Positions 2,167-64,000 of a stretch of DNA of 64,000 nucleotides are shown here, in pieces (within the stretch, counting starts at the first letter, position 1; every line of letters starts with the position of its first letter). A model generated the notes under the pieces. The model was not told the origin of the DNA, did not search any database, and saw only the letters and a program-made list of their open reading frames with translations. The DNA is taken from positions 51,692 to 115,691 of the IMG/VR virus record IMGVR_UViG_3300033075_001734; one strand, 5' to 3'. The stretch is from a virus. The position numbers and the translations under genes are program-made.

Positions 2167-3201
2167 ATGCGAATTTTAATTACTGGCGCGGCGGGATTTC
2201 TTGGTAGTCATTTGATGTTACGACACCTCATGTTAGGGGATGAAGTTCTTGGCATTGACAATTATTGTTCTTCTTCACCTCGTTCTTTACATGTGAAACG
2301 AATTCAATCATTATGTAAATCTACTGGACGAGGACTGTTGTTTAACGCAGATATAAATAAAGAAAAGTCTGACAATTATTCTCATAACACAGTTGATGAA
2401 GCATTAGATAATTTTTATACATTGGGTCACGGTGATAATCCGATAGATTTAATCTACAATTTCGCATGTCCCGCATCACCTCCTGTTTATCAACGAATGC
2501 CAATTGAAACGTTGATGACATGTACGTTTGGTGTCAAAAATATTCTTGATCTAGCAAGTGAACATAAGGCGAAAGTTGTTCATGCATCTACGTCAGAAAT
2601 TTATGGCGATCCTGAAATTTCACCTCAAATTGAATCGTATCGTGGAAGTGTAAATACATGGGGACCTCGAAGTAATTACGACGAAGGTAAACGTTGCGCC
2701 GAAGCATTGTGTTATGAATACTTGCAAAAAGGCGTTGATGTTAGAGTTGCTCGTATCTTTAATACGTATGGACCTCACTTAGATCCAAATGACGGGAGAG
2801 TTATTTCTAATTTCATAATGCAAGCAGGAAATAACAAACCAATTACGATTTACGGCAGCGGACTACAGACGCGTAGTTTTTGTTATGTTACTGATTTGAT
2901 TCGTGGTATTACGTCTCTTTCAGAAAGTGAAAATTTTCTAATGCCTATTAATATCGGAAATCCTACAGAGTTTACAATATTAGAATTGTCAAGTTTAATC
3001 TACAAAATGTTTCCAAATGCACCCGACCTAATTCCACAACAATTACCAGTTGATGATCCCACACGCCGGTGTCCAGATATATGGCTTGCAAAAGGAATTT
3101 TAAAGTGGGAACCTAAAGTAAGTTTAAGTGAAGGACTTTATAAGTTAGCGTCAGAATGGTTTGAGCAAGGTATTATTGTTGAAAGGCCAATTCAAATATG
3201 A
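2167..3201 (+). CDS. UDP-glucuronate decarboxylase (UDP-xylose synthase), SDR family
   Basis: Rossmann motif ILITGAAGFLGSHL at the N-terminus. The stretch ASTSEIYGDPE...YDEGKRCAE...VRVARIFNTYGP...DGRVISNF...YGSG.QTRSF.YV.DL is nearly co-linear with UXS1-type enzymes, including the catalytic YxxxK. Confidence 0.85.
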   Translation: MRILITGAAGFLGSHLMLRHLMLGDEVLGIDNYCSSSPRSLHVKRIQSLCKSTGRGLLFNADINKEKSDNYSHNTVDEALDNFYTLGHGDNPIDLIYNFACPASPPVYQRMPIETLMTCTFGVKNILDLASEHKAKVVHASTSEIYGDPEISPQIESYRGSVNTWGPRSNYDEGKRCAEALCYEYLQKGVDVRVARIFNTYGPHLDPNDGRVISNFIMQAGNNKPITIYGSGLQTRSFCYVTDLIRGITSLSESENFLMPINIGNPTEFTILELSSLIYKMFPNAPDLIPQQLPVDDPTRRCPDIWLAKGILKWEPKVSLSEGLYKLASEWFEQGIIVERPIQI

Positions 3202-3389
3202 TTTACACACCCAAAGTAAAAGATGTAATCATTTACGAGTCCAAAAAAACTGGATATCGTTTTAAATGTGAAGTAACTTCGATAGAAGGAAATTGGTTAA
3301 TGGGAAATCCACTTCCCTTTAATATGAATGAACCAGGATATTTAATTTTGGAAGTTTTTCGAGATAAAAAATCAATTTATAGATGGTAA
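3198..3389 (+). CDS. hypothetical protein
   Basis: Small 63-aa ORF with an ATGA overlap to the upstream gene. Confidence 0.25.
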   Translation: MIYTPKVKDVIIYESKKTGYRFKCEVTSIEGNWLMGNPLPFNMNEPGYLILEVFRDKKSIYRW

Positions 3390-3696
3390 GATAATGAATA
3401 AGGTATTCAATGAAATTAAAGATGATCTTAAACGATATACACGTAATGAGTTAAAACGCTTGTGTAAAATACACAATATTAATACATGGGGATTGAAAAA
3501 ACGCTTATTGAAATTTTGTTAGTGCCTGTTTTGTTTAAAGATTATTTTGAAGCAACACAACGAAAATATCGTGAACAGCAAATAAAAATTTTGAGTAAAC
3601 GTTTGAAATATGGCGGAAAAAAAGAAAAAATGCTGAGAAACGTTTATTGAAATTTGGAGTTGTTTATGATCATAAATTTATTTTGTACATTGGTGG

Positions 3697-4332
3697 GTGA
3701 AAGTTGTGGGAGGCAAAAACAGAAATACATTACGAGCTAAACAACAATTGCATCTTGATTCACTTAAAGATAAAATTATTTTTTGGTATATTGAAGAGAA
3801 ATATACAACTATTCAAATTCAAAAATTAATTTTAGATTTAGGATTTAATTATACGATTGGTCAAATTGGATTTGCAATAACGAGATTTGGTTTAAAACGA
3901 AATAGGGACACAAAAACAGAAACGTTTTTGAATGCGATAAAAAACAGAAAATACAAATTAAAAAATTGTAATCATTGCATAGAAAAATTTTTACCTACGT
4001 CAAACAGTCAACTTTTTTGTCAGAACTGTTCACCGTGTTCTACACATTCAAGAAGAATTAAGAGATACGGTGTTGGGAAACAAGAATTTGATAAAATGTA
4101 TTTTGCGCAAGATGCAAAATGTGGTATTTGTAAATTAGAATTAGATTTAATGAACACAGTAGTTGACCACGATCATATAACATTGTATATTCGTGGATTA
4201 TTGTGTCGCAAGTGTAATTTAAAATTATGCGTTATTGAAGAAAAACAATTTGTAATAAATGCACAAGAATATTTGTCCTTTTATGAAAAAAATCCAAATG
4301 AAAATTTACGTGCAACTTTAAAGAGTAAATAA
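3697..4332 (+). CDS. HNH-family (Endo VII-like) endonuclease, putative homing endonuclease
   Basis: C-terminal CGICK...VDHDHITLYIRGLLCRKCN is the HNH/EndoVII motif (DHDH...RGLLC..CN). It sits immediately upstream of the split dnaE. Confidence 0.65.
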   Translation: MKVVGGKNRNTLRAKQQLHLDSLKDKIIFWYIEEKYTTIQIQKLILDLGFNYTIGQIGFAITRFGLKRNRDTKTETFLNAIKNRKYKLKNCNHCIEKFLPTSNSQLFCQNCSPCSTHSRRIKRYGVGKQEFDKMYFAQDAKCGICKLELDLMNTVVDHDHITLYIRGLLCRKCNLKLCVIEEKQFVINAQEYLSFYEKNPNENLRATLKSK

Positions 4333-6410
4333 TGAGTGAAATAAAAAGTCCTAACACCTTTTTTGGTCTTCATAACCATACGACGTTCAGCACATATGAT
4401 GGACTCGGTTACCCAGATGATCATTTTAAATTCTGCATGGAAAATGGCCTTGATGGTCATGCGATTACAGATCATGGTCATCTCAACAGTTATGCTCATG
4501 CTCAACTTTGGGTTGAAGATTGGAACAAGAAAAACAAAGAGAAACCGTTCAAGTATATTCCTGGCGTTGAAGCGTATTTTCACCCCGATCTTGAACAATG
4601 GAAACGTGACAAAGAAGCATTTGATCAATCAAAAATTGATAAAAAGGCTGCGAATCTTTTAAAGACTAAACAGGAAAAACTTCAATCAAAGTTAATCGCA
4701 GTCACTGACGGTGATGATGAAACCGAAAGCATTGAAATGAGTAATGCTCTCACGGTTGAAGATGAAGAAGAATCAAAGTCTACAAAAAACTTTAATCCTG
4801 TTAACAGAAGACATCACTTAGTTATACTTCCGAAGTCACAGAAAGGCCTTCAGAAAATCTTTGCCGCCGTGAGTAAAGGTTATATGCAAGGGTTTTATCG
4901 ATTTCCTAGAATTGATTCTCGCGTCCTCAAGGAAGCAGGAAAAGATGGCGACTTGGTAGTTTTAAGCGCATGCATCGCTGGGAGTCCTGCTTTTGAAGTT
5001 TTTCAGCAGGTTCAACAAGTGAAATTTGATGAACTGAGTGAAAAACTTCTTGATGATCCTGTGTTACTTGAAAAATGTGTAACATCAATTGGGAACGTAT
5101 ATGACTTAATGACAAGTTGTGTAGGTCAAGGAAATTATTATCTTGAACTTCAATTCAATAAACTTCCTGCACAGAATCTTGTCAATCGTGCGATAATTGA
5201 ATTCGCAAAACGCAGTGGTCAAACAAAACAACTTGTTGTTACTTGCGATGCACACTATTACAATCCTGATGTTTGGCGTGAGCGAGAGATTTACAAGAAA
5301 ATTGGGTTCATGAATTACAAGGACGTAGATCCTAATTCAATTCCAAAATCTCGCGACGAACTAAAGTGTGAACTTTATCCTAAGAATGCAACACAGGTCT
5401 GGGATGAATATCATCGTTCGAAAGCTAATACGTCGTTTTATGATGATGAACTTATTCGTGATGCCATTGAAAGAACTCATGACATTGCTCATAAAGTTAT
5501 CGGCGAAACACCACCAGATAGAACTTCAAAACTTCCTAGCGAAAAATTAGTTCCCAAAGATGAAACTGCATTTCAACATCTTGTAAAACTTTGCAAAGAA
5601 GGAATTGTTAAACGTAATCTCCATAATGATATTCGTTATGTTGAACGTCTCAAAGAAGAACTTGGCGTCATCAAAAAAATGAAGAATGCTGAGTACTTTG
5701 TAACGTATCAAAAGGTTACTGAACTTGCAAGAAAAAGGGTTCTTCTCGGGTGCGGGAGAGGATCTGGTGGGGGATCTTTAATCAATTACGTTCTGTACAT
5801 TACAGATCTCGATCCAATCAAATGGGATCTTCCATTTTCACGCTTTATCTCAGTGTACCGGCAAGGGGCTCCGGATATCGACTGTGTTAACTTTGATCAT
5901 TTAGTCATAATGGCTGATGGGACACATAAATTTGCTGGTGAAATTATGATTGGTGATGAAGTTTTGGGTGGTGATAATAAACCTCACAAAGTTCTTGAAA
6001 CATGGATGCGAGGTTCAAAACATGGCGAATTCGCATTGGAAATTTTTGTAAAAGCAGACAATGAAATATATGGTTGTATTGACGTCGTGCCAAATCATAA
6101 ATTCATTACAAATAATGGTGATATCGTAAAAGCAAATGAACTTAAGGTCGGTGATAAATTGATGTCTTCGTCAGAAGTTGAAATCGTTGAAATTAGGTTT
6201 TCAGCAAAAACTGATCAATTGTATGTTGATATCACCGTCGAAGATGATCATCGATTTCATGTAATTCCGTTTAATTGTGTAGTAAATGAATTAGAAATAA
6301 TGAATACGTATTCATATTGTAATGAGATGATTCCAAATACGTTTATTATGTGTGGCGAAGGTGAGAATTATTGCAATGCATCGTGTGAATCAAAGAGGAA
6401 TATTTGGTGA
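4332..6410 (+). CDS. dnaE: DNA polymerase III alpha (DnaE) N-terminal fragment, comprising the PHP domain, the palm start and an intein N-part
   Basis: PHP motif FFGLHNHTTFSTYDGLGYPDDHFKFCMENGLDGHAITDHGHL. The catalytic motif SRFISVYRQGAPDID is interrupted after PDID by CVNFDHLVIMADGT...DDHRFHV, which looks like intein blocks A-F. Confidence 0.85.
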   Translation: MSEIKSPNTFFGLHNHTTFSTYDGLGYPDDHFKFCMENGLDGHAITDHGHLNSYAHAQLWVEDWNKKNKEKPFKYIPGVEAYFHPDLEQWKRDKEAFDQSKIDKKAANLLKTKQEKLQSKLIAVTDGDDETESIEMSNALTVEDEEESKSTKNFNPVNRRHHLVILPKSQKGLQKIFAAVSKGYMQGFYRFPRIDSRVLKEAGKDGDLVVLSACIAGSPAFEVFQQVQQVKFDELSEKLLDDPVLLEKCVTSIGNVYDLMTSCVGQGNYYLELQFNKLPAQNLVNRAIIEFAKRSGQTKQLVVTCDAHYYNPDVWREREIYKKIGFMNYKDVDPNSIPKSRDELKCELYPKNATQVWDEYHRSKANTSFYDDELIRDAIERTHDIAHKVIGETPPDRTSKLPSEKLVPKDETAFQHLVKLCKEGIVKRNLHNDIRYVERLKEELGVIKKMKNAEYFVTYQKVTELARKRVLLGCGRGSGGGSLINYVLYITDLDPIKWDLPFSRFISVYRQGAPDIDCVNFDHLVIMADGTHKFAGEIMIGDEVLGGDNKPHKVLETWMRGSKHGEFALEIFVKADNEIYGCIDVVPNHKFITNNGDIVKANELKVGDKLMSSSEVEIVEIRFSAKTDQLYVDITVEDDHRFHVIPFNCVVNELEIMNTYSYCNEMIPNTFIMCGEGENYCNASCESKRNIW
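5883..6410 (+). mobile_element. intein N-terminal portion (blocks A, B and F) inserted in the DnaE PDxD catalytic motif
   Basis: Begins with Cys directly after PDID. Contains the Hint-domain block F DITVEDDHRFHV. It lacks a canonical terminal HN and ends in a 45-aa Cys-rich tail. Confidence 0.55.
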
Positions 6411-8518: not shown

Positions 8519-9256
8519 ATGCTTCATTCTTTCCTAAATACAGGAAAGTCAGTTGTTGTTCATAACACTGACGTATCTGATCGCGATAAAGTCCTTGATG
8601 AATTGCGAGATTTCTTCGGGTATGAAAATGTAGTACCTATTTCAAATTTTAACTTAATGAAGGTAAAATCACTTCTTAAGGATCTTGCAAAGTTTTATGG
8701 CGTTCCTTATGAAGAAGTGAATCATGCAACGAGAACAGTTGAACAATCTGTTCGTTCTGCAACCATGAAACACGGTGATGACAAGAATTTATTTGTATTG
8801 ACATATGAAGAAGCATTAAAGTACGACAAACCGTTTAGTGACTTCATTGAAAAATACCCAGAAGTCGGTAAATCAATGTTGGTTTTGTTCAAACAAAACC
8901 GAAGTTTAAGTCGTCATGCGGGTGGAATTCTTGTATGTGATGACTTACCTAACAAAATGCCTTTAATTACGTCATGCGGTGAACCTCAAACACCGTGGGT
9001 CGAAGGTGTAAGTTCAAAACATCTTGAGAAAATTGGAAATTTTCTCAAGCTCGATATTTTAGGGTTAGAAACGCTTCGCCTTATTGAACGTACTATTGAA
9101 TTAATTATCAAAAAACAAGGTGGAATAATTCAGTTTGAAATTGACGGGAAAGTAAACAGAGTTGTTGGATCAAAAATGATCATGTTGAGTGATGGATCAA
9201 CAAAACGTGCCGATCAATTAAAGGAAAATGATGATATCATGTCCATTTTGCAATAG
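8519..9256 (+). CDS. dnaE: DnaE middle fragment, beginning with a short intein C-part (MLHSFLNTGKSVVVHN)
   Basis: SVVVHN|T is a canonical intein block G / +1 Thr junction. The sequence TDVSDRDKVLDELRDFFGYENVVPIS...GVPYEEV...HAGGILV...LKLDILGLETLRLIE that follows matches the DnaE palm, which would rejoin PDID. Confidence 0.8.
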   Translation: MLHSFLNTGKSVVVHNTDVSDRDKVLDELRDFFGYENVVPISNFNLMKVKSLLKDLAKFYGVPYEEVNHATRTVEQSVRSATMKHGDDKNLFVLTYEEALKYDKPFSDFIEKYPEVGKSMLVLFKQNRSLSRHAGGILVCDDLPNKMPLITSCGEPQTPWVEGVSSKHLEKIGNFLKLDILGLETLRLIERTIELIIKKQGGIIQFEIDGKVNRVVGSKMIMLSDGSTKRADQLKENDDIMSILQ

Positions 9257-10247
9257 AGAATTTAATAAATCACTTAAAAATCATTTAACAAAACATTTTG
9301 AAGGTGAAAATTCTATGATTCGAGCATATGAAAAACATATGAATAAATCTGTTGTTGATTTATATGTCAATTGTGGTAAAAGTGCCACTGAAATTGCGAA
9401 TTTAATTCGTAGCGAATGTAATTGGATTAAACCGTTAAAAGGACATGTTCTTAAATTTCTAGATGATAACAATGTTGTTCGTCGAAAAACGTCGGAAGCG
9501 ATGAAATCGTATTATACACAAAATGATGTATGGAATAAAGATAAAACAAAATATGATCATGAAAGTATAATGAAATATGCTAATTCACGTATGGGTGAAA
9601 ATAATCCAATACATAAAACAACGTTTGAACAACGATCATATTCAAACGCTTTCTCAAAACTTAAACGAGAAGGTCGTTTAGAAGAATTAGAAAAATTAAA
9701 AAGCGATATATCTGACGGGGTCACAAATTGGTTTTCTCAAGACCAAAATTATGAAAAATATATTGCGGCTTATGATGCGGCTCGGCCAAAACAATTAACT
9801 AATGTAAGATTGGGCGTACAAAATTATCACAAACGTTATGCTGACTTGGGATTACCATCGCCAAATAGAATCGCCTGGATTAGTAATCCTGAACTAATTG
9901 TTAAGAGTGCCCTCGAACAACTCAACCTGAAATTCCAGCATCAATGGTATTATGCTCGTGCGTGTTTTGATTTTTATCTTCATGATTACAAAACGATCAT
10001 TGAAGTCAACGGAACATATTGGCACGGTCACGAATCTGTTTTTGAAAATGATGAAATGATTCATCCGAACAAGAAAATTTCAATCAAAGATATTAAAGCT
10101 CGTGACGAACAGAAACGAGTGTATCTTATTGAAAACGGGTTTAAGTTAATAACATTGTGGGATAATGAGTTTAAAACAACAGAAGACGCTGTTAAAATTC
10201 TCGTTGAAAAATTAGAAATTAGTAATGTCGAAAATAACATCTCTTAA
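9228..10247 (+). CDS. endonuclease with an N-terminal zinc finger and a C-terminal Vsr/DUF559-like PD-(D/E)xK domain (putative homing endonuclease)
   Basis: N-terminal CPFCNREFNKSLKNHLTKHFE. C-terminal FDFYLHDYKTIIEVNGTYWHG...ARDEQKRVYLIENGFKLITLWDNEF resembles the Vsr-like fold. It interrupts dnaE. Confidence 0.5.
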   Translation: MMISCPFCNREFNKSLKNHLTKHFEGENSMIRAYEKHMNKSVVDLYVNCGKSATEIANLIRSECNWIKPLKGHVLKFLDDNNVVRRKTSEAMKSYYTQNDVWNKDKTKYDHESIMKYANSRMGENNPIHKTTFEQRSYSNAFSKLKREGRLEELEKLKSDISDGVTNWFSQDQNYEKYIAAYDAARPKQLTNVRLGVQNYHKRYADLGLPSPNRIAWISNPELIVKSALEQLNLKFQHQWYYARACFDFYLHDYKTIIEVNGTYWHGHESVFENDEMIHPNKKISIKDIKARDEQKRVYLIENGFKLITLWDNEFKTTEDAVKILVEKLEISNVENNIS

Positions 10248-11745
10248 AAAAGTTTCAACTACGTTTGAAGACATCAAATTGTGGTATGAACAAAACATGT
10301 CACCTGATGTCATAAACTTTGATGATCCTGAACCATTTAAAGTTTATTCTGATTCACGTTGGTGCGGCGTATTTCAACTAACCTCTGTGGGAGCTCAGAA
10401 GCTCTTTACAAAGGCAAGGCCAAAATCGATTATCGATATTGCAGCATTGACATCTGTTTATCGACCTGGGCCTTTGTCTGCAAACGTTGATAAACTTTGG
10501 TTGAAACATGAATTTGAATCTTATGATTGGGGTCATCCTCTTATCAATGAAACACTAAAAGAAACTCGAGGATTATGCGTGTTTCAGGAAAGCGTAATGT
10601 CTTTAGCTAATAAAGTTGCTGGATTCCCGCTTGATGAAACTGACGAGGTCCGTCGGGCAATTATGAAGCGTAGCATTTCAGGTGGTGCTGCTGCAATTCA
10701 GAAAATGAAAGAACTTGAAGACTCTTTCGTTAATGGTTGTATGAACAATGGTGTTCCTCAAAATACTGCAACCAAAGCTTATGAGACTATATGTCATTTC
10801 TCTGGATATGGGTTCAATAAAAGTCATGCAGTCGCCTATGCAATCTGTTCATATTGGTGTGCATGGCTTTTAACATATCACGAGGAAGAATGGGTAACTG
10901 CATATATTGAATCAATGTCAAATTCACCAGATAAAAAAGAAAAAGCATTTGGTGAAGTTAAACAATTAGGTTATGAAATTGTTCCCATTGATATCAATCA
11001 TGCCCAGATTGGTTGGACTGTTCTTCCCGGCAAAAAATTGATGCCAAGTCTTTTGACATGTAAAGGTATTGGCGAATCAGCAGCCGAAGAAGTTATTGCA
11101 AATAGACCTTATGAAAATATTGAGCAAGTTCTTTGGAACGAAGATGGAACTTGGAAACCATCAAAATTCAATAAACGTGGTCTTGAAGCATTAATAAAAG
11201 TGGGTGCATTTGCTTCACTTGATTGTGTTGGTGAAGATAAACTTTTTGAGAGTTATCGTCATATGTATGAGGTCATCATTGAAAACTCAAATGCCATTAA
11301 AAAATCATCTAAAAAAGATCCGAGTATTGGCCGTAAGACATTCTTCGAATTAACTCGGGCCCTTCGACCAATGCCTGAATGGTCTAGACGAGAGTTAGTT
11401 GAGGCATATGTTGACGTGTTTGGAAGTTTGGATGTTTCCAAACTGTTAGAACAGGATGTTCTTAAGAAACTTGAAGACAAGAACGTCATGTCAATTGACA
11501 ACTGGGAACAAAAGGGCTTTCACTGGTTTGTTGTTCAGAGTGTTGTAACAAAGAAAACAAAAACAGGAAAAGCGTACTTAATGATTAAGGGTCTTGGTCC
11601 GATGGGAAAGTCTTATAGAATTAATGTGTGGGGTTGGAAAGAAGAAAATGAACCGCTTGAAGAATTTGATGTTATTGTTGCTGAACTTGATAAAAATGAA
11701 TATGGATTTTCAACAACGTCATGGCGATGTAAGGTGATTGCATGA
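10225..11745 (+). CDS. dnaE: DnaE C-terminal fragment (fingers and OB-fold region)
   Basis: Motifs GVFQLTSVGAQKLF...ALTSVYRPGPL and GYGFNKSHAVAYAICSYWCAWLLTYH (the FNKSHA.AYA DnaE motif). Confidence 0.85.
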   Translation: MSKITSLKKVSTTFEDIKLWYEQNMSPDVINFDDPEPFKVYSDSRWCGVFQLTSVGAQKLFTKARPKSIIDIAALTSVYRPGPLSANVDKLWLKHEFESYDWGHPLINETLKETRGLCVFQESVMSLANKVAGFPLDETDEVRRAIMKRSISGGAAAIQKMKELEDSFVNGCMNNGVPQNTATKAYETICHFSGYGFNKSHAVAYAICSYWCAWLLTYHEEEWVTAYIESMSNSPDKKEKAFGEVKQLGYEIVPIDINHAQIGWTVLPGKKLMPSLLTCKGIGESAAEEVIANRPYENIEQVLWNEDGTWKPSKFNKRGLEALIKVGAFASLDCVGEDKLFESYRHMYEVIIENSNAIKKSSKKDPSIGRKTFFELTRALRPMPEWSRRELVEAYVDVFGSLDVSKLLEQDVLKKLEDKNVMSIDNWEQKGFHWFVVQSVVTKKTKTGKAYLMIKGLGPMGKSYRINVWGWKEENEPLEEFDVIVAELDKNEYGFSTTSWRCKVIA

Positions 11746-14257: not shown

Positions 14258-14764
14258 ATGAGTAATTGTTTGTTTTGTGACAATGAAACAATATCTGGGA
14301 CAAATTTTTGTGATTGGGATTGTCATGTTAAAATGGCACAAAAATTAGGCGGAAAAGACCATCGCCCAAATAAGTTGCCTGTTAATTGTATTATGGCAGA
14401 TGGGACAATGCTTGAATGTGAACATGGTGATCATCCAAGTTATAAATTTCCAATCATGGTTGAAATTCCTGAAAAAGATCGTAAAGCACATTTTATGTAC
14501 GAACAGTCAGACGGTCATACGTATGAACTTTCTGACGAAGACATTAAAAATGAATCAGTAAATGAGAGACACGCACTGATATTTTTTGATGATACGGTTG
14601 CGTTAACGTTGTTTGAACACGTGTATTATATGTGGTCATTAAGCAGTGGATATTGCATACGAGACCCTTTTGCATTTAAGGGTGAAAAATCGTATTGGAA
14701 AATTTGTGATAGTGATTTAGAAAAAATTCGTAATGAAACTTTCAAAGTACAATTTACATTATAA
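14258..14764 (+). CDS. hypothetical Cys-rich protein
   Basis: Motif CLFCDNE...CDWDCH at the N-terminus. Confidence 0.35.
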   Translation: MSNCLFCDNETISGTNFCDWDCHVKMAQKLGGKDHRPNKLPVNCIMADGTMLECEHGDHPSYKFPIMVEIPEKDRKAHFMYEQSDGHTYELSDEDIKNESVNERHALIFFDDTVALTLFEHVYYMWSLSSGYCIRDPFAFKGEKSYWKICDSDLEKIRNETFKVQFTL

Positions 14765-14896
14765 TTTGTGGGCTAAAAATTATTTTTTCAATAGGTTGGA
14801 TTTTATTTGTCCTGGTGAATTGATTGTTGATGATATCAGCGGTTATAACGAATATGGATTAGTAATCTCTAACATAAACAATGTCATCCAAATTCT

Positions 14897-15139
14897 TTGG
14901 GCAATCGTTTAATGATTTATCCTGGCAGTTTATGCATATCACGTAGATGTATTGTGTTATTGAAAAACAAAAGAATGGTGAATCAATATTTCGGAGTGAT
15001 TTCTGCTAAATCACCATTTTTTATTGTCAGCATTGAAGAATTAACTTTTGATCGGTATTCATTATATGTAATAACATCTTCAATGCAAAAAATGGGTTGG
15101 ATTTATGATCTAAGTTCTAGCTTTGATTTGGTGGTATGA
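14897..15139 (+). CDS. PGDL/GWI small-protein family member
   Basis: Carries YPGSLCI and GWIYDL. Confidence 0.4.
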   Translation: MGNRLMIYPGSLCISRRCIVLLKNKRMVNQYFGVISAKSPFFIVSIEELTFDRYSLYVITSSMQKMGWIYDLSSSFDLVV

Positions 15140-15178
15140 AAATGCGAACATTTGATAAGTTATTCACGATGAAAAAAC

Positions 15179-15430
15179 ATGATATATCCCGGTGATTTAT
15201 GTATTGTACGAAGATTTAATGGGTCTGATTCATTTATCCCAGTTTATGATAAAAATTTCATCTTTTCTAAGAATAAAGTATGCATAGGGGGCTTTAAACA
15301 TATGTGTCTTGTTATTTGTTCGTTAACAATTAAGGGTGATTCATATTCTTCGTATTATATCATATCAGATAATGGTCTAACAGGCTGGATTTACGAATCA
15401 AAGTTTTTGATGAATACAAAATCTGTGTAG
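15179..15430 (+). CDS. PGDL/GWI small-protein family member
   Basis: Carries YPGDLCIV and GWIYES. Confidence 0.45.
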   Translation: MIYPGDLCIVRRFNGSDSFIPVYDKNFIFSKNKVCIGGFKHMCLVICSLTIKGDSYSSYYIISDNGLTGWIYESKFLMNTKSV

Positions 15431-15477
15431 TTTAATAGTAATGTTATTATGCATTCTAGTGAATTAAAATAAAATAA

Positions 15478-15699
15478 ATGAAAATTTATCCCGGTATGTT
15501 GTGTAAAATTGTTGGAGCTTTTGAAAATGACATACACATAATGATGCTTGATTGCGAAGATTATACTGATGCTTTTTTAGTTAAAAAAAATTCTTTAGCA
15601 TTAATTTTAACACAACATGGAGATGGGATGTTAGTGTTGTTAACGTCAACAAAACAAATTGGAACTATACATAGTTGTGTTTGTGATATTATAGGTTGA
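15478..15699 (+). CDS. PGDL/GWI small-protein family member
   Basis: Carries YPGMLCKIV and IGTIH. Confidence 0.4.
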   Translation: MKIYPGMLCKIVGAFENDIHIMMLDCEDYTDAFLVKKNSLALILTQHGDGMLVLLTSTKQIGTIHSCVCDIIG

Positions 15700-57576: not shown

Positions 57577-57789
57577 TTACACTACAGAAATGTCTTTAAG
57601 ACGTAACAAACCGATCCAACCTGTAAAATCATCATTAATGATGTATAATGAAACATCTGTCGTTGCTATAACGAATGCAATTGAATTAACTTTCCAAATT
57701 GTATGAATCGATCGTATTAAAAACGGATCTTCATACACACTCTTATTTACGTCCGATATAATCAAAGTACCAGGCAAAATCTCACTCAT
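57577..57789 (-). CDS. PGDL/GWI family member
   Basis: Contains ILPGTLII and GWIGLL. Confidence 0.4.
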   Translation of the reverse strand: MSEILPGTLIISDVNKSVYEDPFLIRSIHTIWKVNSIAFVIATTDVSLYIINDDFTGWIGLLRLKDISVV

Positions 57790-57997
57790 AAATATCAGCG
57801 TTATTTTTATGGATCCAACCAGAATTCTTTTCATTAAGAACGAATAGTGAATCATCAACTACGGATATTACATAGAAAATCATATTAGCGGAGGCGGCGT
57901 CGCTATCGAAGATCATAAACTCATCATATAATTTCACATCATTATAAATGAACATTAACGATGTAGAAATCACAAGATCTCCCGGTAGAATTTTCAT
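57782..57997 (-). CDS. PGDL/GWI family member
   Basis: Contains ILPGDLVI and GWIHK. Confidence 0.45.
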   Translation of the reverse strand: MKILPGDLVISTSLMFIYNDVKLYDEFMIFDSDAASANMIFYVISVVDDSLFVLNEKNSGWIHKNNADIYE

Positions 57998-58004
57998 AAT
58001 TTTT

Positions 58005-58247
58005 CTAGTAATTCAAAAACATGTGGTTATAATCTGCGTAGCCAAACGTTATCCAACCCGTACCGTTTGATTGAATAATAAATAAACTCATATGATTTCG
58101 CCAGTGAATAACAGAAACAATTAACCCATATGTATTGTATTTCCATATACATGATAGTTTCTGTTTTGGATTTATTTCTCCATTTTTATTAACGTATATA
58201 CCCAGTGATAACGTTTGTTTTGTTTTGCAAAAAAGTCCTGGTTTCAT
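58005..58247 (-). CDS. PGDL/GWI family member
   Basis: Contains GWITFG; the N-terminal motif is degenerate. Confidence 0.35.
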   Translation of the reverse strand: MKPGLFCKTKQTLSLGIYVNKNGEINPKQKLSCIWKYNTYGLIVSVIHWRNHMSLFIIQSNGTGWITFGYADYNHMFLNY

Positions 58248-58268
58248 ATGATGTCATCACGCAACATG

Positions 58269-58520
58269 TTAAATATTCAACTTTGAAAAAGCACTTTCAT
58301 TTGTCAAATCAATCCACCCAATACCATATTTTGCAATAATCATACACGTTTGTGTCTTCAAGCCAAGGATTTTCTGATTATCACAATAGACAATGAAGAT
58401 TAAATCATTTGCATGTAAATGAAATTTTATAAAGGCATGAATATTATAACTTTCCCAAACTATTTTATTCACATTTAAAGTGTAATATTCACCCGGCAAC
58501 ATTGGTATACTGCGTATCAT
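58269..58520 (-). CDS. PGDL/GWI family member
   Basis: Contains MLPGEYY and GWIDL. Confidence 0.4.
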   Translation of the reverse strand: MIRSIPMLPGEYYTLNVNKIVWESYNIHAFIKFHLHANDLIFIVYCDNQKILGLKTQTCMIIAKYGIGWIDLTNESAFSKLNI

Positions 58521-58755
58521 CCATATATGAAATCCATCCTATTCTAGAATCTGATGTTAGCACTGATAATGCAAAAAATGTACCCAACTTTTTTTTAGCA
58601 ATAATAAAAACAATTGAATTTGCTAATATACTGTGTTCATAATGAACAGGATTTAATTCGTAACGTAACCAGGCATGCGCATACGATTCATCCAAATATC
58701 TTAGATATTTTAATCTAATCAAAGTTCCAGGCCCTACTTGCACAATATTATCCAA
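58489..58755 (-). CDS. PGDL/GWI family member
   Basis: Contains VGPGTLI and GWISY. Confidence 0.4.
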   Translation of the reverse strand: MDNIVQVGPGTLIRLKYLRYLDESYAHAWLRYELNPVHYEHSILANSIVFIIAKKKLGTFFALSVLTSDSRIGWISYMDDTQYTNVAG

Positions 58756-58988
58756 TCATTAATCATAAATGATATGTCATCGCTTAAATAAAGAATACCA
58801 ATTCCATATTCAGGGTTTATTATAATTACGTTGATTTCTTCACTCTTATTATCGTGAATTTTAGAAATGACAAAAAAATTGTTTCCTTTAAGGAAACAAT
58901 TCGAATTGTCTAAAGTGTCAAACCATATTCCATATTCTCCCTTCACTGATATTAATGCGCCTGGATTAATGTCTTTAAATGTGAACAT
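58734..58988 (-). CDS. PGDL/GWI family member (variant)
   Basis: Contains INPGALIS and GIGILY. Confidence 0.35.
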   Translation of the reverse strand: MFTFKDINPGALISVKGEYGIWFDTLDNSNCFLKGNNFFVISKIHDNKSEEINVIIINPEYGIGILYLSDDISFMINDWIILCK

Positions 58989-58998
58989 TATTCAATAC

Positions 58999-59247
58999 TT
59001 ACACGCGCACAAAATCTGTAACATATGCCCAACCAAAACTTTTTTCTGAAAAAACATATATCATAACGCGATTATCAAATGTTGAAATTTTCGCTATAAC
59101 CAGATAATAATTTAATATGTCTGAAAAAACATATTCACATTCTAGAAACGCATTAGAATTAAAAGAAACATTAGTTGGATTAATCAATCCTGAATATCTT
59201 CTGTAAACTAGATCGCCTATGCAAATGTCACCCGAGTACTTTTTCAT
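58999..59247 (-). CDS. PGDL/GWI family member
   Basis: Contains CIGDLVY and GWAYV. Confidence 0.4.
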   Translation of the reverse strand: MKKYSGDICIGDLVYRRYSGLINPTNVSFNSNAFLECEYVFSDILNYYLVIAKISTFDNRVMIYVFSEKSFGWAYVTDFVRV

Positions 59248-59525
59248 TAAACATAAGTAAATTCATAAAGCTTCATATTCATCAATATACAGATGAACCC
59301 AACCTAATTCACCACGTGATGTCATAATAAACACTTTATTTAAAGTATTGCTCGTTTTATATGATGAAATTATTAAAAAAAGAGAACTTAGTTCTAATTT
59401 TCCCCTTAAATGCGTATAAGAAAAAAATTGATATCATCAAATAATTGCAATTCAATAGATGACGTGAATTTACATATTGAACCTGGCCACATGAGTATAC
59501 AATCTACGTTAAAGTGACGGAAACT

Positions 59526-59834
59526 TTAATTTAAATTTTTGAAATCGCCAATATCTAACTGATCAATCCAGCCAAGCCCAAATTTTGTTAACACTAAATA
59601 TGTGTTAAAGCCATCTATCATAGATGATTTGTTGATAATCAAAAATATGTCATTAGCATTTATAATAAATTTAGGTCGATTATTGATTTCTAAGGCTAAA
59701 GAATTCCAAACACTCGTTGTTCTATTTGACATGCAAATATCACCTGGTAAAAACACTTTCTTATTTGTCACTGTACTTCCAACGGGATAAAAACGGGAGC
59801 CACTAAAATGTATAATTGAGGAACAATTCTCCAT
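59526..59834 (-). CDS. PGDL/GWI family member
   Basis: Contains FLPGDICM and GWIDQL. Confidence 0.4.
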   Translation of the reverse strand: MENCSSIIHFSGSRFYPVGSTVTNKKVFLPGDICMSNRTTSVWNSLALEINNRPKFIINANDIFLIINKSSMIDGFNTYLVLTKFGLGWIDQLDIGDFKNLN

Positions 59835-60040
59835 GCATTGTGCGCAGAGCCTAGTGCTGTTGAAAATTTATCAAATGTAACATCATACATTTGTCCATTT
59901 GAAGATAATAATTTGATGAATTTTTCTTCTATGTGCGCAACAACAAAAAAATTTGACCCATGATATGTGAATATCATCCCAGGTTCAATGGCTTGACTTT
60001 TTTTGAAATAAACAGTACTATGTAATATCAAATTATTCAT
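59768..60040 (-). CDS. PGDL/GWI family member (divergent)
   Basis: Contains IEPGMIFTY. The C-terminus is divergent and overlaps its neighbour. Confidence 0.3.
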   Translation of the reverse strand: MNNLILHSTVYFKKSQAIEPGMIFTYHGSNFFVVAHIEEKFIKLLSSNGQMYDVTFDKFSTALGSAHNAWRIVPQLYILVAPVFIPLEVQ

Positions 60041-60272
60041 TGTGAATTAAAATTTCATATTCATCTTCAAGAAGGTCTATCCAACCAATGTTATTACGTG
60101 ATGTAACAACTAAAACTTTTTCTACGAGATCTTGTGCAATAGTTTTTGATATCACTAAAAATAAATCATCGTATGTTAATTTGCCCATTAAGTTAACAAC
60201 TTCTTTAGGATGAGGCGATAAATACAGTGCATAACGCTTTTTGTATTTATGCAAAAAGCCAATTTTTAACAT
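60033..60272 (-). CDS. PGDL/GWI family member
   Basis: Contains DDLFLVIS and GWIDLL. Confidence 0.4.
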   Translation of the reverse strand: MLKIGFLHKYKKRYALYLSPHPKEVVNLMGKLTYDDLFLVISKTIAQDLVEKVLVVTSRNNIGWIDLLEDEYEILIHNE

Positions 60273-60478
60273 GAAATAATCTCATATTCACTTGTCAACA
60301 AGTGAATCCAACCTATATTATTTTTCATCGTAATGATAAAAATTTTCTCTTTTTGATTTTTATAGGTCGTTATCACTAAAAATAAATCATCGGGCTCCAA
60401 GGTTACTGATTCATTTATAGGGTAATAAATGTCAACGAATTGTGATAACTGCAATCGATTTTTTTTGTGAATTTGCAC
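60266..60478 (-). CDS. PGDL/GWI family member
   Basis: Contains DDLFLVIT and GWIHLL; it is the closest paralog of the previous ORF. Confidence 0.4.
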   Translation of the reverse strand: MQIHKKNRLQLSQFVDIYYPINESVTLEPDDLFLVITTYKNQKEKIFIITMKNNIGWIHLLTSEYEIISC

Positions 60479-60497
60479 AGAAAACCTGGTTGCAACA

Positions 60498-60776
60498 TCA
60501 AATTATCCGATATTCATAGGAATACAATTTAATCCAACCCAATTTACACTTTGATGTGATGATAAAAAACATTTTATGTTCTGTCTCTTCAATTAATCGT
60601 GGGCGTCTTTTAATTTGATTGGTGCTATCTTCAGTTATCGAAATAATGAAAAACAAATCACCTGTATAAACACAGAAGGCGTTATGAATCAATGGAATTT
60701 CTGTGACGAATGATGATAAACGTAACGGATAGTTGGCCATGTAAACACATAAAGATCCGATTTCTGGCTTAGGCAT
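60498..60776 (-). CDS. PGDL/GWI family member
   Basis: Contains YTGDLFFI and GWIKL. Confidence 0.4.
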   Translation of the reverse strand: MPKPEIGSLCVYMANYPLRLSSFVTEIPLIHNAFCVYTGDLFFIISITEDSTNQIKRRPRLIEETEHKMFFIITSKCKLGWIKLYSYEYRII

Positions 60777-60951
60777 GTGGGGAACTCAATTTAGAAAAAC
60801 ATATCGTATAATCCAGAACAAAAACGAAAGTATTGTAATCAAGTTCAATCCAATACGTTTCAACAAACAATGATATATCTGATGTTGTTATAAGAAGATC
60901 GCCTGGAAACAGGTGCAAATATGACGTGTCGGGAACCAAAATTAAACCTTC

Positions 60952-61260
60952 TTAAACACGTAATATGTCTAGAGCTCGCATGTCTAGAGCTCGCATGATG
61001 ACATCAATGGAATAGATAATGAAGCCATATTCATGCGCGGTCATAACAAATAGCCAAGTTGAATATCTTTCAAGACGATAATTGCTAGGAATAACGGAAA
61101 TAACAAGTGCAAATTCATTTTTGTTGTTGCGAAAAGTATATTCACCATTCACATTTAATTGTGCATAAACACACTTCGTTTCCAAGATTTGAATCAAATC
61201 CCCAGGTACTATATCACACTTTTTCAAAATACATTTCATAACTCCAACACAATTTAGCAT
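60952..61260 (-). CDS. PGDL/GWI family member with a C-terminal MRALD tandem duplication
   Basis: Contains IVPGDLIQI. The 3' end contains a 16-bp tandem duplication (CATGCGAGCTCTAGAC x2). Confidence 0.4.
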   Translation of the reverse strand: MLNCVGVMKCILKKCDIVPGDLIQILETKCVYAQLNVNGEYTFRNNKNEFALVISVIPSNYRLERYSTWLFVMTAHEYGFIIYSIDVIMRALDMRALDILRV

Positions 61261-61507
61261 CAGGTGTTAATAGAAACACACAGGAATAATCTAACACATT
61301 ATCTTTTTGAGGTATACATGATATGACGACAAATATTCTCGTGTCTTTAAAGTAAAACAGTTTCTGTGCGGCGTTTAATTCATCTAAGGTTTTTAACTCT
61401 GAATCAAACACAAAATCATTGTTATGGTAACTGTAACACCATGCTGCTACTGTTTTAAGCAAATCACCAGGATAAAAAATCTGATTCATATCATTATGTA
61501 AAGACAA
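61214..61507 (-). CDS. PGDL/GWI family member
   Basis: Contains FYPGDLLK and CWSYE. Confidence 0.4.
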   Translation of the reverse strand: MSLHNDMNQIFYPGDLLKTVAAWCYSYHNNDFVFDSELKTLDELNAAQKLFYFKDTRIFVVISCIPQKDNVLDYSCVFLLTPDAKLCWSYEMYFEKV

Positions 61508-61540
61508 AGTTAAATGACAACATCGTGTCGGGACCCAATT

Positions 61541-61789
61541 TCAAATTTTCCTAAACACAGAAATGTAAGAATCTGAATTGTAAAATTTATTACATGTAAT
61601 TCCAAGCTTTGTGATAAAGAAGAATTCAACAATAAGATATTTTGATCTAGGATTGGTAACCCTCCTAAAAATCAAAAAGAAAATATCCCCTTTGCTAAAA
61701 AGGGCTAAATCATTTCGCCAAACCTCAACATTAGGATTAAAGACTAATAAATCCCCAGGAAATAATTGTGAAAAAATTGCATTATTCAT
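61541..61789 (-). CDS. PGDL/GWI family member
   Basis: Contains LFPGDLLVF. Confidence 0.4.
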   Translation of the reverse strand: MNNAIFSQLFPGDLLVFNPNVEVWRNDLALFSKGDIFFLIFRRVTNPRSKYLIVEFFFITKLGITCNKFYNSDSYISVFRKI

Positions 61790-62051
61790 GTAATTTGCAC
61801 AGACTAGTGGATATTCACAGCTGACACGGGATGGGACTAAGACAGAAAATAAAAGACAAAAGTATTATGGTGATACGACATGAGGAAAAGAGTGGGACGG
61901 GGGAAAGGGACGTATTACTGCATAAAGTTATGGCAAAAACAAAACAGCGTAATACACAAAGGCTTTTCCATATATTGATTTTTTGCTTATTTTATGCGTC
62001 ATTTCATCAGTGAACTGTTACGCGCAATTCTTTGACTCGTACCCCTAGCAA

Positions 62052-62106
62052 AATGATAACATTGTTCGCTAAGCTATTACACTTTAAGCGAACAATGTTA
62101 TCATGC
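62052..62106. repeat. 18-bp perfect inverted repeat (ATGATAACATTGTTCGCT ... AGCGAACAATGTTATCAT) with a 17-nt spacer
   Basis: Seen in the sequence. The half-site AAAATGATAACATT recurs at about 62182 (direct) and about 63097 (inverted). Confidence 0.7.
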
Positions 62107-62217
62107 TCAATTATAAAACATTATTGAATTCAACAATGAAAATCAACAATAATATTTCTTGTTTTTTCGCGTTTCCCTCTAGCAAAATGATAACATTTTA
62201 TCACAAATCATCACAGT

Positions 62218-62988
62218 TTAACGCCGTTTGGCTGCCTTGATTTTGATGCGCTCAAGTTTCTCTGCTCTAATGACTTCCTTGGGGCGATTCTTACTACCAG
62301 CTGGGCGACCTCGCCCGCGCTTCTTTTCGACAATTCCATTTTCTTTGTTGAATTGAGCTTTTTGCTTTGCAGCAAGTTCCTTGCGAGCTTTTGCTGGATT
62401 AAATGGATCTCCCCTGCCGGGAACCAATTTAACATTTTGGCCGGGATGTTTGAATCCAATATTCGCTAGCGTTCCGTGCTCTTCATCAATACACTTCACA
62501 ACGCCAGTATCATCATCAATTTCTCGCACCCTGTAGATCTTGGTATCTAGCCAATAGTTAAGAGACCAAGACAAGAATCTTTCTACGACGATTCTATCAC
62601 CAGCAGCAAATAGTGGAAGAATCAACCCGTCTTCCAGGGTTACAGTTCCATTTTCAAGATGTTCAATGCTAGGCCTACGAGCAAGTCTGCGTTGCTCTCT
62701 AACGTTATCAGGAAGAGTTGCTTCCTCCATGTCTTCATCTGATTCAACAGAGATCTTTGCAGTTAGAGATTTTTCGTTTTGTGTCACCGCGTTCTCAATT
62801 ACAGAGTCAGCGCCACTGAACAAACCAGAAATGTTATCATTTTTGCAAGGGACAGACGCGTCTTTTTCAGTCATTTGATTTCCCATATTACTGTCAGTGA
62901 CACTCGATTTACTCGAGTTTTTTTGCGCCACCTTGGAAGTCCTAACCATGGTCTTAATATAACCCAATTTTCTGTGCACTTTCATCAC
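62218..62988 (-). CDS. AT-hook DNA-binding protein
   Basis: C-terminal KKRGRGRPAGSKNRPK and PGRGDPFNP (AT-hook GRP cores) plus a basic tail. It lies in a region of higher GC content. Confidence 0.5.
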   Translation of the reverse strand: MMKVHRKLGYIKTMVRTSKVAQKNSSKSSVTDSNMGNQMTEKDASVPCKNDNISGLFSGADSVIENAVTQNEKSLTAKISVESDEDMEEATLPDNVREQRRLARRPSIEHLENGTVTLEDGLILPLFAAGDRIVVERFLSWSLNYWLDTKIYRVREIDDDTGVVKCIDEEHGTLANIGFKHPGQNVKLVPGRGDPFNPAKARKELAAKQKAQFNKENGIVEKKRGRGRPAGSKNRPKEVIRAEKLERIKIKAAKRR

Positions 62989-63339
62989 TTGTCTAAAAAA
63001 GAATCATGGCGTAAATCTGTGTTTTTGCTCAATTCAACGGCGAATTCAAGACAAAAATTGCAGGTTCACACCACGCTTTGCATGATGAATTTTGACTAAA
63101 ATGTTATCATTTTCTCGATAGAAAATCGTTTTCTATTTTTAGTTTCACACCTTTTCGATGTTAAACTTGTCTGTCTCTGACAAAAATTTCAACAACTGTT
63201 CATACAATGCAAATTCAATTTTTGCTCGACGTAAGCGCCAATAAGGATTATGAAGAGGATCAATCTCGTCATCATAAGTTCCGTATTTGAAAAAAACATT
63301 TTCGCAAGATTCTTGTTTTTTTCAAGATGATCTGCAACT

Positions 63340-64000
63340 TTATGATTGCACAAATATAGCGTTTTCACTTCGAATTCTTTCCTGACCCAGACCAAAACCT
63401 AGACCCAGACGCAGACCAAGATCCAGACCTAGGCCAAGGCCAAGATCCAGATGTAAACCCAGACCCAAACCCAGACCTAGACCTAAACCCAGACCTAGAC
63501 CCAGACAAAGACCCAGATTTAGACCCATGCCCATGTAGTTTCTTGTACTTAAGTTTTGTCATTGCGAATTCTTTCCAGACCTAGACCAAAACCTAGACCC
63601 AGACGCAGACCAAGATCCAGACCTAGGCCAAGGCCAAGATCCAGATGTAAACCCAGACCCAAACCCAGACCTAGACCTAAACCCAGACCTAGACCCAGAC
63701 AAAGACCCAGATTTAGACCCATGCCCATGTAGTTTCTTGTACTTAAGTTTTGTCATTGCGAATTCTTTCCAGACCTAGACCAAGACACAGGCCCAGACAT
63801 AGACCACCTAGACCAAGACCTAGGCCAAGATCCAGATGTAAACCCAGACCCAAACCCAGACCCAGACCTAGATCCAGACCAAAACCCAGACACAGACCCA
63901 GACCTAGATCCAGACCAAGATCCAGACCCAGACAAAGACCAAAACCCAGACACAGACCTAGACCTAGACCAAAACCCAGACACAGACCTAGACCTAGACC
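63340..64000. repeat. 6-bp minisatellite (CCAGAC/CTAGAC/CAAGAC variants) organised in higher-order repeats of about 194 bp; it runs to the window end
   Basis: Seen in the sequence. Track ORFs 63365-63562 and 63559-63756 are near-identical because they read through successive repeat units. The element ATGCCCATGTAGTTTCTTGTACTTAAGTTTTGTCATTGCGAATTCTTTCC recurs at about 63525 and 63719. Confidence 0.85.

Follow-up and report, generated by a model that had tools for sequence, protein, structure and literature searches.

A tandem array of small, rapidly diversifying paralogous genes with a predicted SH3-like fold in a huge-phage genome

Based on the analysis of a 64,000-nucleotide (nt) stretch of viral DNA (IMG/VR record IMGVR_UViG_3300033075_001734, positions 51,692 to 115,691; this whole stretch is called the window, and all coordinates refer to it unless a contig is named), a tandem array of small paralogous genes has been unveiled at 57577-61789 on the minus strand. 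The array consists of 17 open-reading frame (ORF) slots, 13 of which hold intact canonical members, and three more members of the family lie on the plus strand at 14912-15699. We consider it moderately probable that the array is a polycistronic set of rapidly diversifying, cytoplasmic, stand-alone SH3-like binding modules of 70-100 amino acids (aa), and it may serve in anti-defence or in the takeover of the host. The window comes from a huge-phage genome whose G+C content is about 33% and which lacks tRNA genes.

On sequence grounds, the array copies and the plus-strand copies are one real paralogous family, as an earlier note on this DNA had proposed. A profile (A1) made from the alignment of 17 window copies and applied to every ORF in the six frames of the window recovered 14 array ORFs and the three plus-strand ORFs at E-values of 1e-13 to 1e-23; elsewhere in the 64 kb the best match had an E-value of 0.024, apart from a fragment of a broken copy (1e-7) and weak matches of three doubtful ORFs. 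The fragment at 59266-59433, which was outside the training set, scored 1e-7 to 1e-9 with the family hidden Markov model (HMM), and the window-only profile also found members in other phages. In all-against-all BLASTP comparisons, 10 of 20 ORFs had a paralogue match at E < 1e-4. The shared pattern begins with PG(D)L near the N-terminus, followed by 15-40 variable residues, a hydrophobic "d-l-F-F-V-I-S" strand, a second hydrophobic strand, "G-W-I" and a short tail. The earlier note had described at least 15 head-to-tail minus-strand genes; the ORFs are where it placed them, and its count is corrected here to the 17 slots and 13 intact members by profile scores and comparison among strains. The three plus-strand copies that it listed at 14.9-15.7 kb are retained, with HMM E-values of 9.5e-14 to 2.5e-20.

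The array diversifies much faster than its surroundings. For the comparisons, contigs L008-L011 (about 98% identical to the window) were treated as strains, and L005/L006, L017 and L019 as sister species. All of the sister species have the same order of elements, namely a 256-aa AT-hook-like protein, a non-coding leader, 16-18 family slots (4.1-4.4 kbp), a 149-aa weakly SLT-like gene and a homologue of the major vault protein (MVP). Between species, MVP is 93-94.5% and the AT-hook-like protein 86-89% identical, and the flanking DNA is 76-82% identical, whereas the best protein matches of the array members are only 27-59% identical, with the gene order roughly collinear. Several array copies found no sister-species match at E < 1e-3, and blastn detected no similarity at all inside the array between species. 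By the Nei-Gojobori method against L019, the flanks showed nonsynonymous (dN) and synonymous (dS) divergences of 0.036-0.08 and 0.6-0.7, respectively (dN/dS, or omega, 0.05-0.14), whereas six positional orthologues in the array gave a dN of 0.26-0.50 and a dS of 1.0-2.5, the latter near saturation (omega about 0.15-0.4). The array dN is thus about 7-10 times that of the flanks. The elevated dS hints at alleles of old age, at exchange between paralogues or at recombination with lineages that have diverged. Within the set of strains, the ratio of nonsynonymous to synonymous polymorphism (pN/pS) was 0.58-0.78 in the array versus 0.19-0.28 in the flanks. The note had called the family diversified, which these figures bear out; of the dN/dS comparison that it recommended, the rise over the flanks was found, but the gene-wide ratios are not above 1 and so do not demonstrate positive selection.

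Divergence goes along with a turnover of genes, seen as copies without orthologues, pseudogenes specific to certain strains and mosaic alleles, and some copies are broken in only some strains. Most array genes are 96-100% identical in nucleotide sequence to those of the strains (the majority at least 99.6%), and three regions stand out, 60498-60776 with 77%, 59768-60040 with about 90% and 59526-59834 with 96.5% identity. The second locus (14.9-15.7 kb) behaves in the same manner, its family copies being 30-65% identical to those of a sister species versus 90-93% for the flanking proteins. A search for DNA repeats revealed neither recent duplications nor recombination repeats in the array; the DNA-level likeness of the paralogues is limited to about 34 nt at 68-74% identity, and thus the duplications are not recent.

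The array proteins are predicted to fold as SH3-like beta-barrels. An AlphaFold2 model of the ORF at 59526-59834, made with the A1 alignment (17 sequences), has a predicted local distance difference test score (pLDDT) of 83, with values above 90 in the core and low values in the disordered N-terminal extension of the long ORF, and contains seven strands and no helix. It is a small barrel of the five- to seven-stranded kind that superposes on solved SH3b and SH3 domains, and its best structural matches are the SH3b domains of NlpC/P60 peptidases, endolysins and lysostaphin, and GW modules. The guess of an SH3-like beta-barrel in the earlier note is therefore borne out at the level of predicted structure. 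In sequence libraries, however, hmmscan of the 17 copies at E-values up to 1 matched no Pfam family of the SH3 clan (SH3_3, SH3_4, SH3_5, GW and others), the family profile matched among Protein Data Bank sequences only the Pex13 SH3 domain (E-value = 0.25), PHROGs gave nothing below 0.045 and NCBIfam nothing relevant. A PADLOC scan of the 17 copies returned single-copy matches at chance level only, the best with an E-value of 0.0014 for one member. Foldseek against BFVD gave weak matches only (E-value 1.5e-3 or worse), to uncharacterised proteins and lysins. The copies have isoelectric points of 4.2-9.6, and about 10 alignment columns are conserved. With starts supported by orthologues, about 0-17 residues precede the PGxL strand, and further domains are absent from all copies; with the strand so placed, neither a signal peptide nor a membrane anchor would fit, and so the copies are presumably cytoplasmic.

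Each copy retains the minimal scaffold (the N-terminal PG(D)L strand, the "FFVIS" strand, the second hydrophobic strand and the C-terminal G-W-I turn-strand), whereas the loops, surface residues and net charge can vary freely. In the reading we favour, the genes would be co-transcribed from the conserved leader, and the copies would make up a repertoire of small binding modules, each for a different, fast-changing partner in the infected cell, which would be recognised by the variable loops and surfaces. Candidate partners are defence or toxin proteins of the host, or proteins of competing phages. The array evolves by birth and death, with old duplications, pseudogenisation and allele replacement, the slots remaining steady at 16-18. 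That the genes evolve far faster than their neighbours is what such a repertoire would be expected to do in an arms race. Several points weigh against this reading. The fold comes as a prediction from a 17-sequence alignment, and the proposed binding role and its targets rest on that fold and the evolutionary pattern. No known anti-defence or defence family was matched in PADLOC. Because the array dS is raised as well (1.0-2.5 versus 0.6-0.7), some of the "orthologue" comparisons may pair paralogues or old alleles. Both pN/pS and omega are raised yet below 1, and relaxed constraint would explain the rates equally well; the several broken copies, moreover, fit partial dispensability.

These last points lead to the rival account in which the array is mostly dispensable and drifting, a set of duplicated small ORFs under weak constraint whose individual copies have no specific function. 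Of the 17 window slots, three hold broken or truncated genes and further ones are broken in certain strains, pN/pS of 0.6-0.8 is near neutrality (1.0 in one low-count comparison), and many copies have no orthologue in the sister species. However, ORFs of 70-100 codons persist in four species within a stretch of 30-32% G+C, the residues of the scaffold and a fold predicted with confidence recur even in a relative of 62% G+C, slot number and array length are stable, the leader is conserved, and omega between species is 0.15-0.4 rather than 1. We hold drift to be unlikely. A decaying repeat, which the earlier note had set against a functional family, was rejected as the main explanation, since the ORFs and the same scaffold are kept in the four species and in the 62% G+C relative.

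The cytoplasmic location inferred above would equally fit proteins that are packaged in the virion or the phage head and enter the cell together with the injected DNA. In T4-like phages the loci for internal proteins are polymorphic, and a conserved locus filled with small, abundant and hypervariable paralogues is reminiscent of them; the array could have diversified in the same way. We regard such a role as quite unlikely, because the region covered by the window is non-structural (replication, nucleotide metabolism, a chaperonin and IF1), the copies share no N-terminal targeting or cleavage motif besides the first strand of the fold, and the BFVD matches, with E-values no better than 1.5e-3, are uncharacterised proteins and lysins.

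Judging from the database searches, the family is rare and lineage-restricted. The exhaustive profile search, of a kind that the earlier note had suggested, yielded 27 matches at E <= 1e-3 among 1.84 billion cluster representatives. One of these was a low-complexity false positive, and the other 26 were small proteins, 40-102 aa long, that show the motif pattern of the family and for which every encoding contig examined belongs to the same phage lineage. When homologues were sought with a word index, A1 and a 47-sequence alignment (A2) each gave only 7-8 matches, all from this lineage. Outside the four low-G+C species, a 62% G+C viral contig (L015), whose MVP is 61% identical, carries at least seven members, four between the AT-hook protein and MVP and three further upstream, and four other contigs (L023-L026) from the clade in which MVP identity is 60% or more carry one or two members each. 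Within 10 kb of MVP, no family member was found at 22 loci of a second clade with about 40% MVP identity. Because members occur in L015 and the other contigs of its clade and none near the MVP of the more distant one, the family is old within one clade of MVP-encoding huge phages, and the large array is an expansion of the low-G+C lineage.

This distribution bears on the possibility that the mini-proteins work with the neighbouring MVP, as exchangeable cargo or adaptors docking into or onto a vault-like shell made by the phage. In the window 76 nt separate the array from MVP, both of which lie on one strand, and the order of AT-hook protein, family members and MVP is kept in the four low-G+C species and in L015. 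The only MVP genes with members nearby were those of the clade with 60% or higher identity (L015, L023-L026; 0 of 22 loci in the other clade had members within 10 kb of MVP). Nevertheless, the second locus with its three members is far from MVP, the sister species place the SLT-like gene between the array and MVP, the 93% conservation of MVP against a hypervariable array is unlike that of usual co-evolving partners, and shared ancestry alone may explain the conserved order. We thus hold a partnership with MVP to be very unlikely, and it is hardly probable that the AT-hook protein, the array and MVP form one functional unit in this clade, with each copy as a vault adaptor or cargo that recruits or sequesters a different protein of the host or of a rival phage.

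Highly improbable, finally, is a service of the copies as cell-wall-binding modules of the SH3b type in lysis or entry, for example in targeting a separate murein hydrolase to peptidoglycan variants: although the top structural matches are the SH3b domains and GW modules named above, and a weakly SLT-like gene (Pfam SLT E-value = 0.0099, below the cut-off) directly follows the array in three sister species, there is no space for a signal peptide or anchor ahead of the PGxL strand, fusion to a catalytic domain is seen in none of the copies, the SLT-like gene is missing from the window and its strains, no copy matched a Pfam SH3 family at E-values up to 1, and sixteen wall-binding modules in one phage would be unprecedented. 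As judged from the position of the N-terminal strand and the domain content, neither an export signal nor a fusion to a secreted or lytic enzyme, by which wall-binding SH3b modules would be recognised, was found.

Large phages harbor hyperplastic loci, such as those for the internal proteins of T4-type phages, and large DNA viruses have multigene families or "gene accordions". Like the present array, these are small genes with a fast turnover at a fixed position between conserved genes, and their rapid divergence is attributed to conflict between host and virus. The array differs in that a single family of a single fold makes up all its genes, its duplications are old and its number of slots is stable. 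From the SH3b domains of bacterial NlpC/P60 peptidases, endolysins, lysostaphin and autolysins the array copies differ in that no Pfam SH3 model matches them, and in that they stand alone, without a catalytic partner domain or secretion signal, each encoded by its own gene in a tandem series of 16-18 instead of forming part of a single protein. Small SH3-like phage proteins in BFVD (for example Bacillus phage PM1 M4ZRZ6, PhiPA3 gp246 and Bacillus phage G gp40) resemble the array copies in being stand-alone, 70-120 aa long and of similar predicted fold; however, the structural match is weak (E-value 1.5e-3 or worse), a sequence relation is absent and these proteins are uncharacterised. As a binder repertoire, the array would be analogous to the paralogous immunity-protein arrays of polymorphic toxin systems. 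Tandem paralogous SUKH immunity proteins have been read as a protection against diverse non-self toxins (PMC3113570), and the SUKH and polyimmunity arrays, like the phage array, consist of divergent head-to-tail paralogues of one small domain whose number and type vary between genomes, a variation interpreted as selection for diversity in the face of varied partners (PMC3113570). The phage array differs from them in fold, is unrelated in sequence, has no adjacent toxin gene, lies in a phage instead of a bacterial chromosome, and is larger, with 16-18 copies versus up to about six in a single SUKH-type array. In short, within the libraries and literature searched, the combination of an SH3-like fold with a paralogue array is undescribed, whereas the fold itself and fast-evolving paralogue clusters in large viruses are already known.

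What is unusual here is a family outside Pfam, PHROGs, NCBIfam and PADLOC, very rare in public sequence data, that has expanded to 16-18 stand-alone domains in tandem, at a locus that is fixed within a single huge-phage lineage, with a conserved leader before it, an MVP homologue after it and a divergence about 7-10 times that of its neighbours. If the copies do bind variable proteins of hosts or competitors, the array would be a natural library of minimal beta-barrel scaffolds and a pointer to the host systems that huge phages must neutralise. Since the near-identical strains and the sister species already show allele swapping and gene loss, population-genetic and experimental tests seem feasible.

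The individual slots and the other features are listed in Table 1. According to metagenome orthologues, several ORFs begin later than the longest possible ORF, and with these starts the junctions between neighbouring genes range from -47 to +51 nt (most from -22 to +21), all on one strand. Slot 4 is cut because of an 88-bp deletion relative to strains L008-L011, and in slot 6 the N-terminal strand is missing because of a 1-nt indel (a gap) relative to the sister strains, which encode a full 77-aa form (P0015). Slot 8, for which no counterpart was found in the three sister species and no match in Pfam, is a possible very divergent short-loop member.

Table 1. Coordinates of the array slots, the second locus and neighbouring features (window positions unless a contig is named; E-values are those of the family HMM unless stated)
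Feature	Position	Strand	Length (aa)	E-value	Remarks
Conserved non-coding leader	61788-61985	-			directly upstream of slot 1
Slot 1, family member	61541-61789	-	82	1.2e-15	positional counterparts in L006, L017 and L019 (36-39% identity)
Slot 2, family member	61214-61489	-	91	3.5e-17	from ATG (longest ORF to 61507); orthologue P0016 begins MNQIFYPGD; 52% identity to L019 slot 9
Slot 3, family member	60952-61260	-	102	8.9e-20	C-terminus lengthened by a 15-nt tandem duplication (60965-60997)
Slot 4, truncated member	60769-60939	-			N-terminal half only; HMM covers profile positions 6-45 only
Slot 5, family member	60498-60776	-	92	1.2e-19	divergent allele
Slot 6, member without first beta-strand	60266-60478	-			HMM covers profile positions 16-76 only; N-terminal remnant in other frame (60418-60513)
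Slot 7, family member	60033-60272	-	79	1.8e-18	closest paralogue of slot 6 (50% identity, BLASTP E 4e-13)
Slot 8, non-canonical ORF	59768-60040	-	90	0.0016-0.047	not a significant member; 82% aa and about 90% nt identity to strain L008
Slot 9, family member	59526-59771	-	81		from GTG like P0001 (longest ORF to 59834); modelled copy
Slot 10, frameshifted pseudogene	59266-59525	-			C-terminal half (59266-59433) matches HMM; N-terminal motif in other frame (59409-59525); broken in all strains
Slot 11, family member	58999-59247	-	82	3.3e-15	identical to P0004, present on at least 23 contigs
Slot 12, family member	58734-58988	-	84	3.4e-18	
Slot 13, family member	58489-58755	-	88	3.4e-20	TTG start; 59% identity to L019 slot 11
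Slot 14, family member	58269-58502	-	77	1e-21	from ATG (longest ORF to 58520); counterpart truncated in strains L009 and L011
Slot 15, family member	58005-58247	-	80	7.3e-19	best-conserved orthogroup (48-54% identity across species)
Slot 16, family member	57782-57997	-	71	2.1e-19	
Slot 17, family member	57577-57789	-	70	8.5e-14	from ATG (longest ORF to 57858), start set by P0019; last gene before MVP homologue
Second-locus member	14912-15139	+	75	2.5e-20	identical to P0002
Second-locus member	15179-15430	+	83	5.3e-15	
Second-locus member	15478-15699	+	73	9.5e-14	GTIH replaces GWI; 65% identity to sister-species copy
AT-hook-like upstream neighbour	62218-62988	-	256		C-terminal RGRP motif; no Pfam match
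MVP homologue, downstream neighbour	54861-57500	-	879		Pfam MVP_shoulder 4.9e-31, Vault_3 1.8e-8, Vault 2.3e-5
Weakly SLT-like gene between array and MVP	L006 10476-10925; L017 11252-11701; L019 11906-12355		149		Pfam SLT 0.0099, below cut-off
Short "PGxL...VLW" ORF	14733-14912	+	59	0.012-0.12	ATG start; not significant
Short "PGxL...VLW" protein	53764-53946	-	60	0.1 or worse	identical to P0038; same small family as 14733-14912
"YPGDL...FVMIVSS...LWWCP" protein	53955-54203	-	82	0.1-0.2	70-90% identical in L006, L008 and L019

The leader ahead of slot 1 is probably a promoter, an operator or the 5' untranslated region of the array, to judge from its conservation. In the proximal 84 nt (61788-61871), identity among the four species reaches 87-95%, higher than in the coding flanks (76-82%), and over 170 nt it is 76-90%. 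The leader contains no conserved ORF, an ORF on the opposite strand not being kept in frame, and its consensus fold is weak (-7.5 kcal/mol) and without covariation. No Rfam match was found in the leader or the array, and there is no excess of sigma-70-like promoter sites in the array. Terminator-like hairpins are slightly in excess, and those on the minus strand, which is that of the array, sit within coding sequence.

The AT-hook-like protein is about 40% identical in high-G+C relatives, and in all relatives examined its gene lies upstream of the array; the protein may contain an SH3/Tudor-like core (AGDRIVVERF...IYRVREIDDDTGVVKC). The motif AATGTTATCATTTTGC occurs around its gene at four sites, two exact and two with two mismatches, versus 0.5 expected (window 62048-62197, 62830-62845 and 63100-63115), and one copy lies within a perfect 18-nt inverted repeat (62053-62070 / 62087-62104). 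The motif or the inverted repeat may be an operator or a terminator. On the other side of the array, the gene for the full-length MVP homologue showed 41-42% identity in tblastn to the uncultured huge phages LR756500, LR756501 and LR756503. Relatives of MVP were recognized on 30 viral contigs from IMG/VR, the largest of 482 kb, and form the two clades of about 40% and at least 60% identity; a 2023 preprint reports only two viral MVPs, both from human-gut phages (10.1101/2023.11.10.566534). The SLT-like gene of the sister species had no tblastn match in the window or its strains. Just downstream of MVP, a 213-aa ORF (54213-54854, minus strand) without a Pfam match is also fast-evolving, with 50-54% identity between species and 94.5-95.3% nucleotide identity among strains.

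Three small ORFs outside the array, which the earlier note had connected with the family, fall short of significance with its HMM. Its "start-less remnant" at about 14766-14890 is actually an ATG-started ORF (14733-14912) of a separate short family, whose alignment (A8) comprises this ORF, 53764-53946 and the metagenome proteins P0034-P0041. A model of this short family has a pLDDT of 77 and matches generic small beta-barrels, not SH3. The supposed degenerate copies at 53764-54203 were likewise rejected as decayed copies, since they represent small-protein families of their own, for which the sister phages have orthologues or paralogues and one of which is well conserved, and neither ORF is significant with the family HMM. 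In pairwise hhalign comparisons with the main family, 53955-54203 aligned in register over 66 columns (E-value = 1e-3, probability 22%) and the short family of 53764-53946 over 32 columns (E-value = 6.5e-5), and a remote common origin with the main family is possible from these alignments.

A megablast search of window positions 54-64 kb against 50,697 GenBank phages gave no match. The genes of the window include those for thymidylate synthase, thymidine kinase, dCMP deaminase and RNA ligase. Near the array, on the plus strand, are an ADP-ribosylglycohydrolase (47369-48292), a GroEL-type chaperonin (49739-51403) and a homologue of translation initiation factor IF1 (51559-51855). At the other end, a tandem-repeat region (63371-64000; period 194 x 2.8, CCAGAC-type hexamers, 42% G+C) yields overlapping low-complexity ORFs (GLGLGL / GSGSRS). 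The DNA polymerase III alpha gene is in pieces, at 4332-6410 and 8519-11745, one piece carrying a Hint/intein-like domain, and an ORF for a Vsr-like endonuclease (9228-10247) splits the pieces 8519-9256 and 10225-11745. Because the related contig L002 has a single unbroken ORF of 702 aa at the matching place (3063-5171), this split is an insertion polymorphism of a mobile element.

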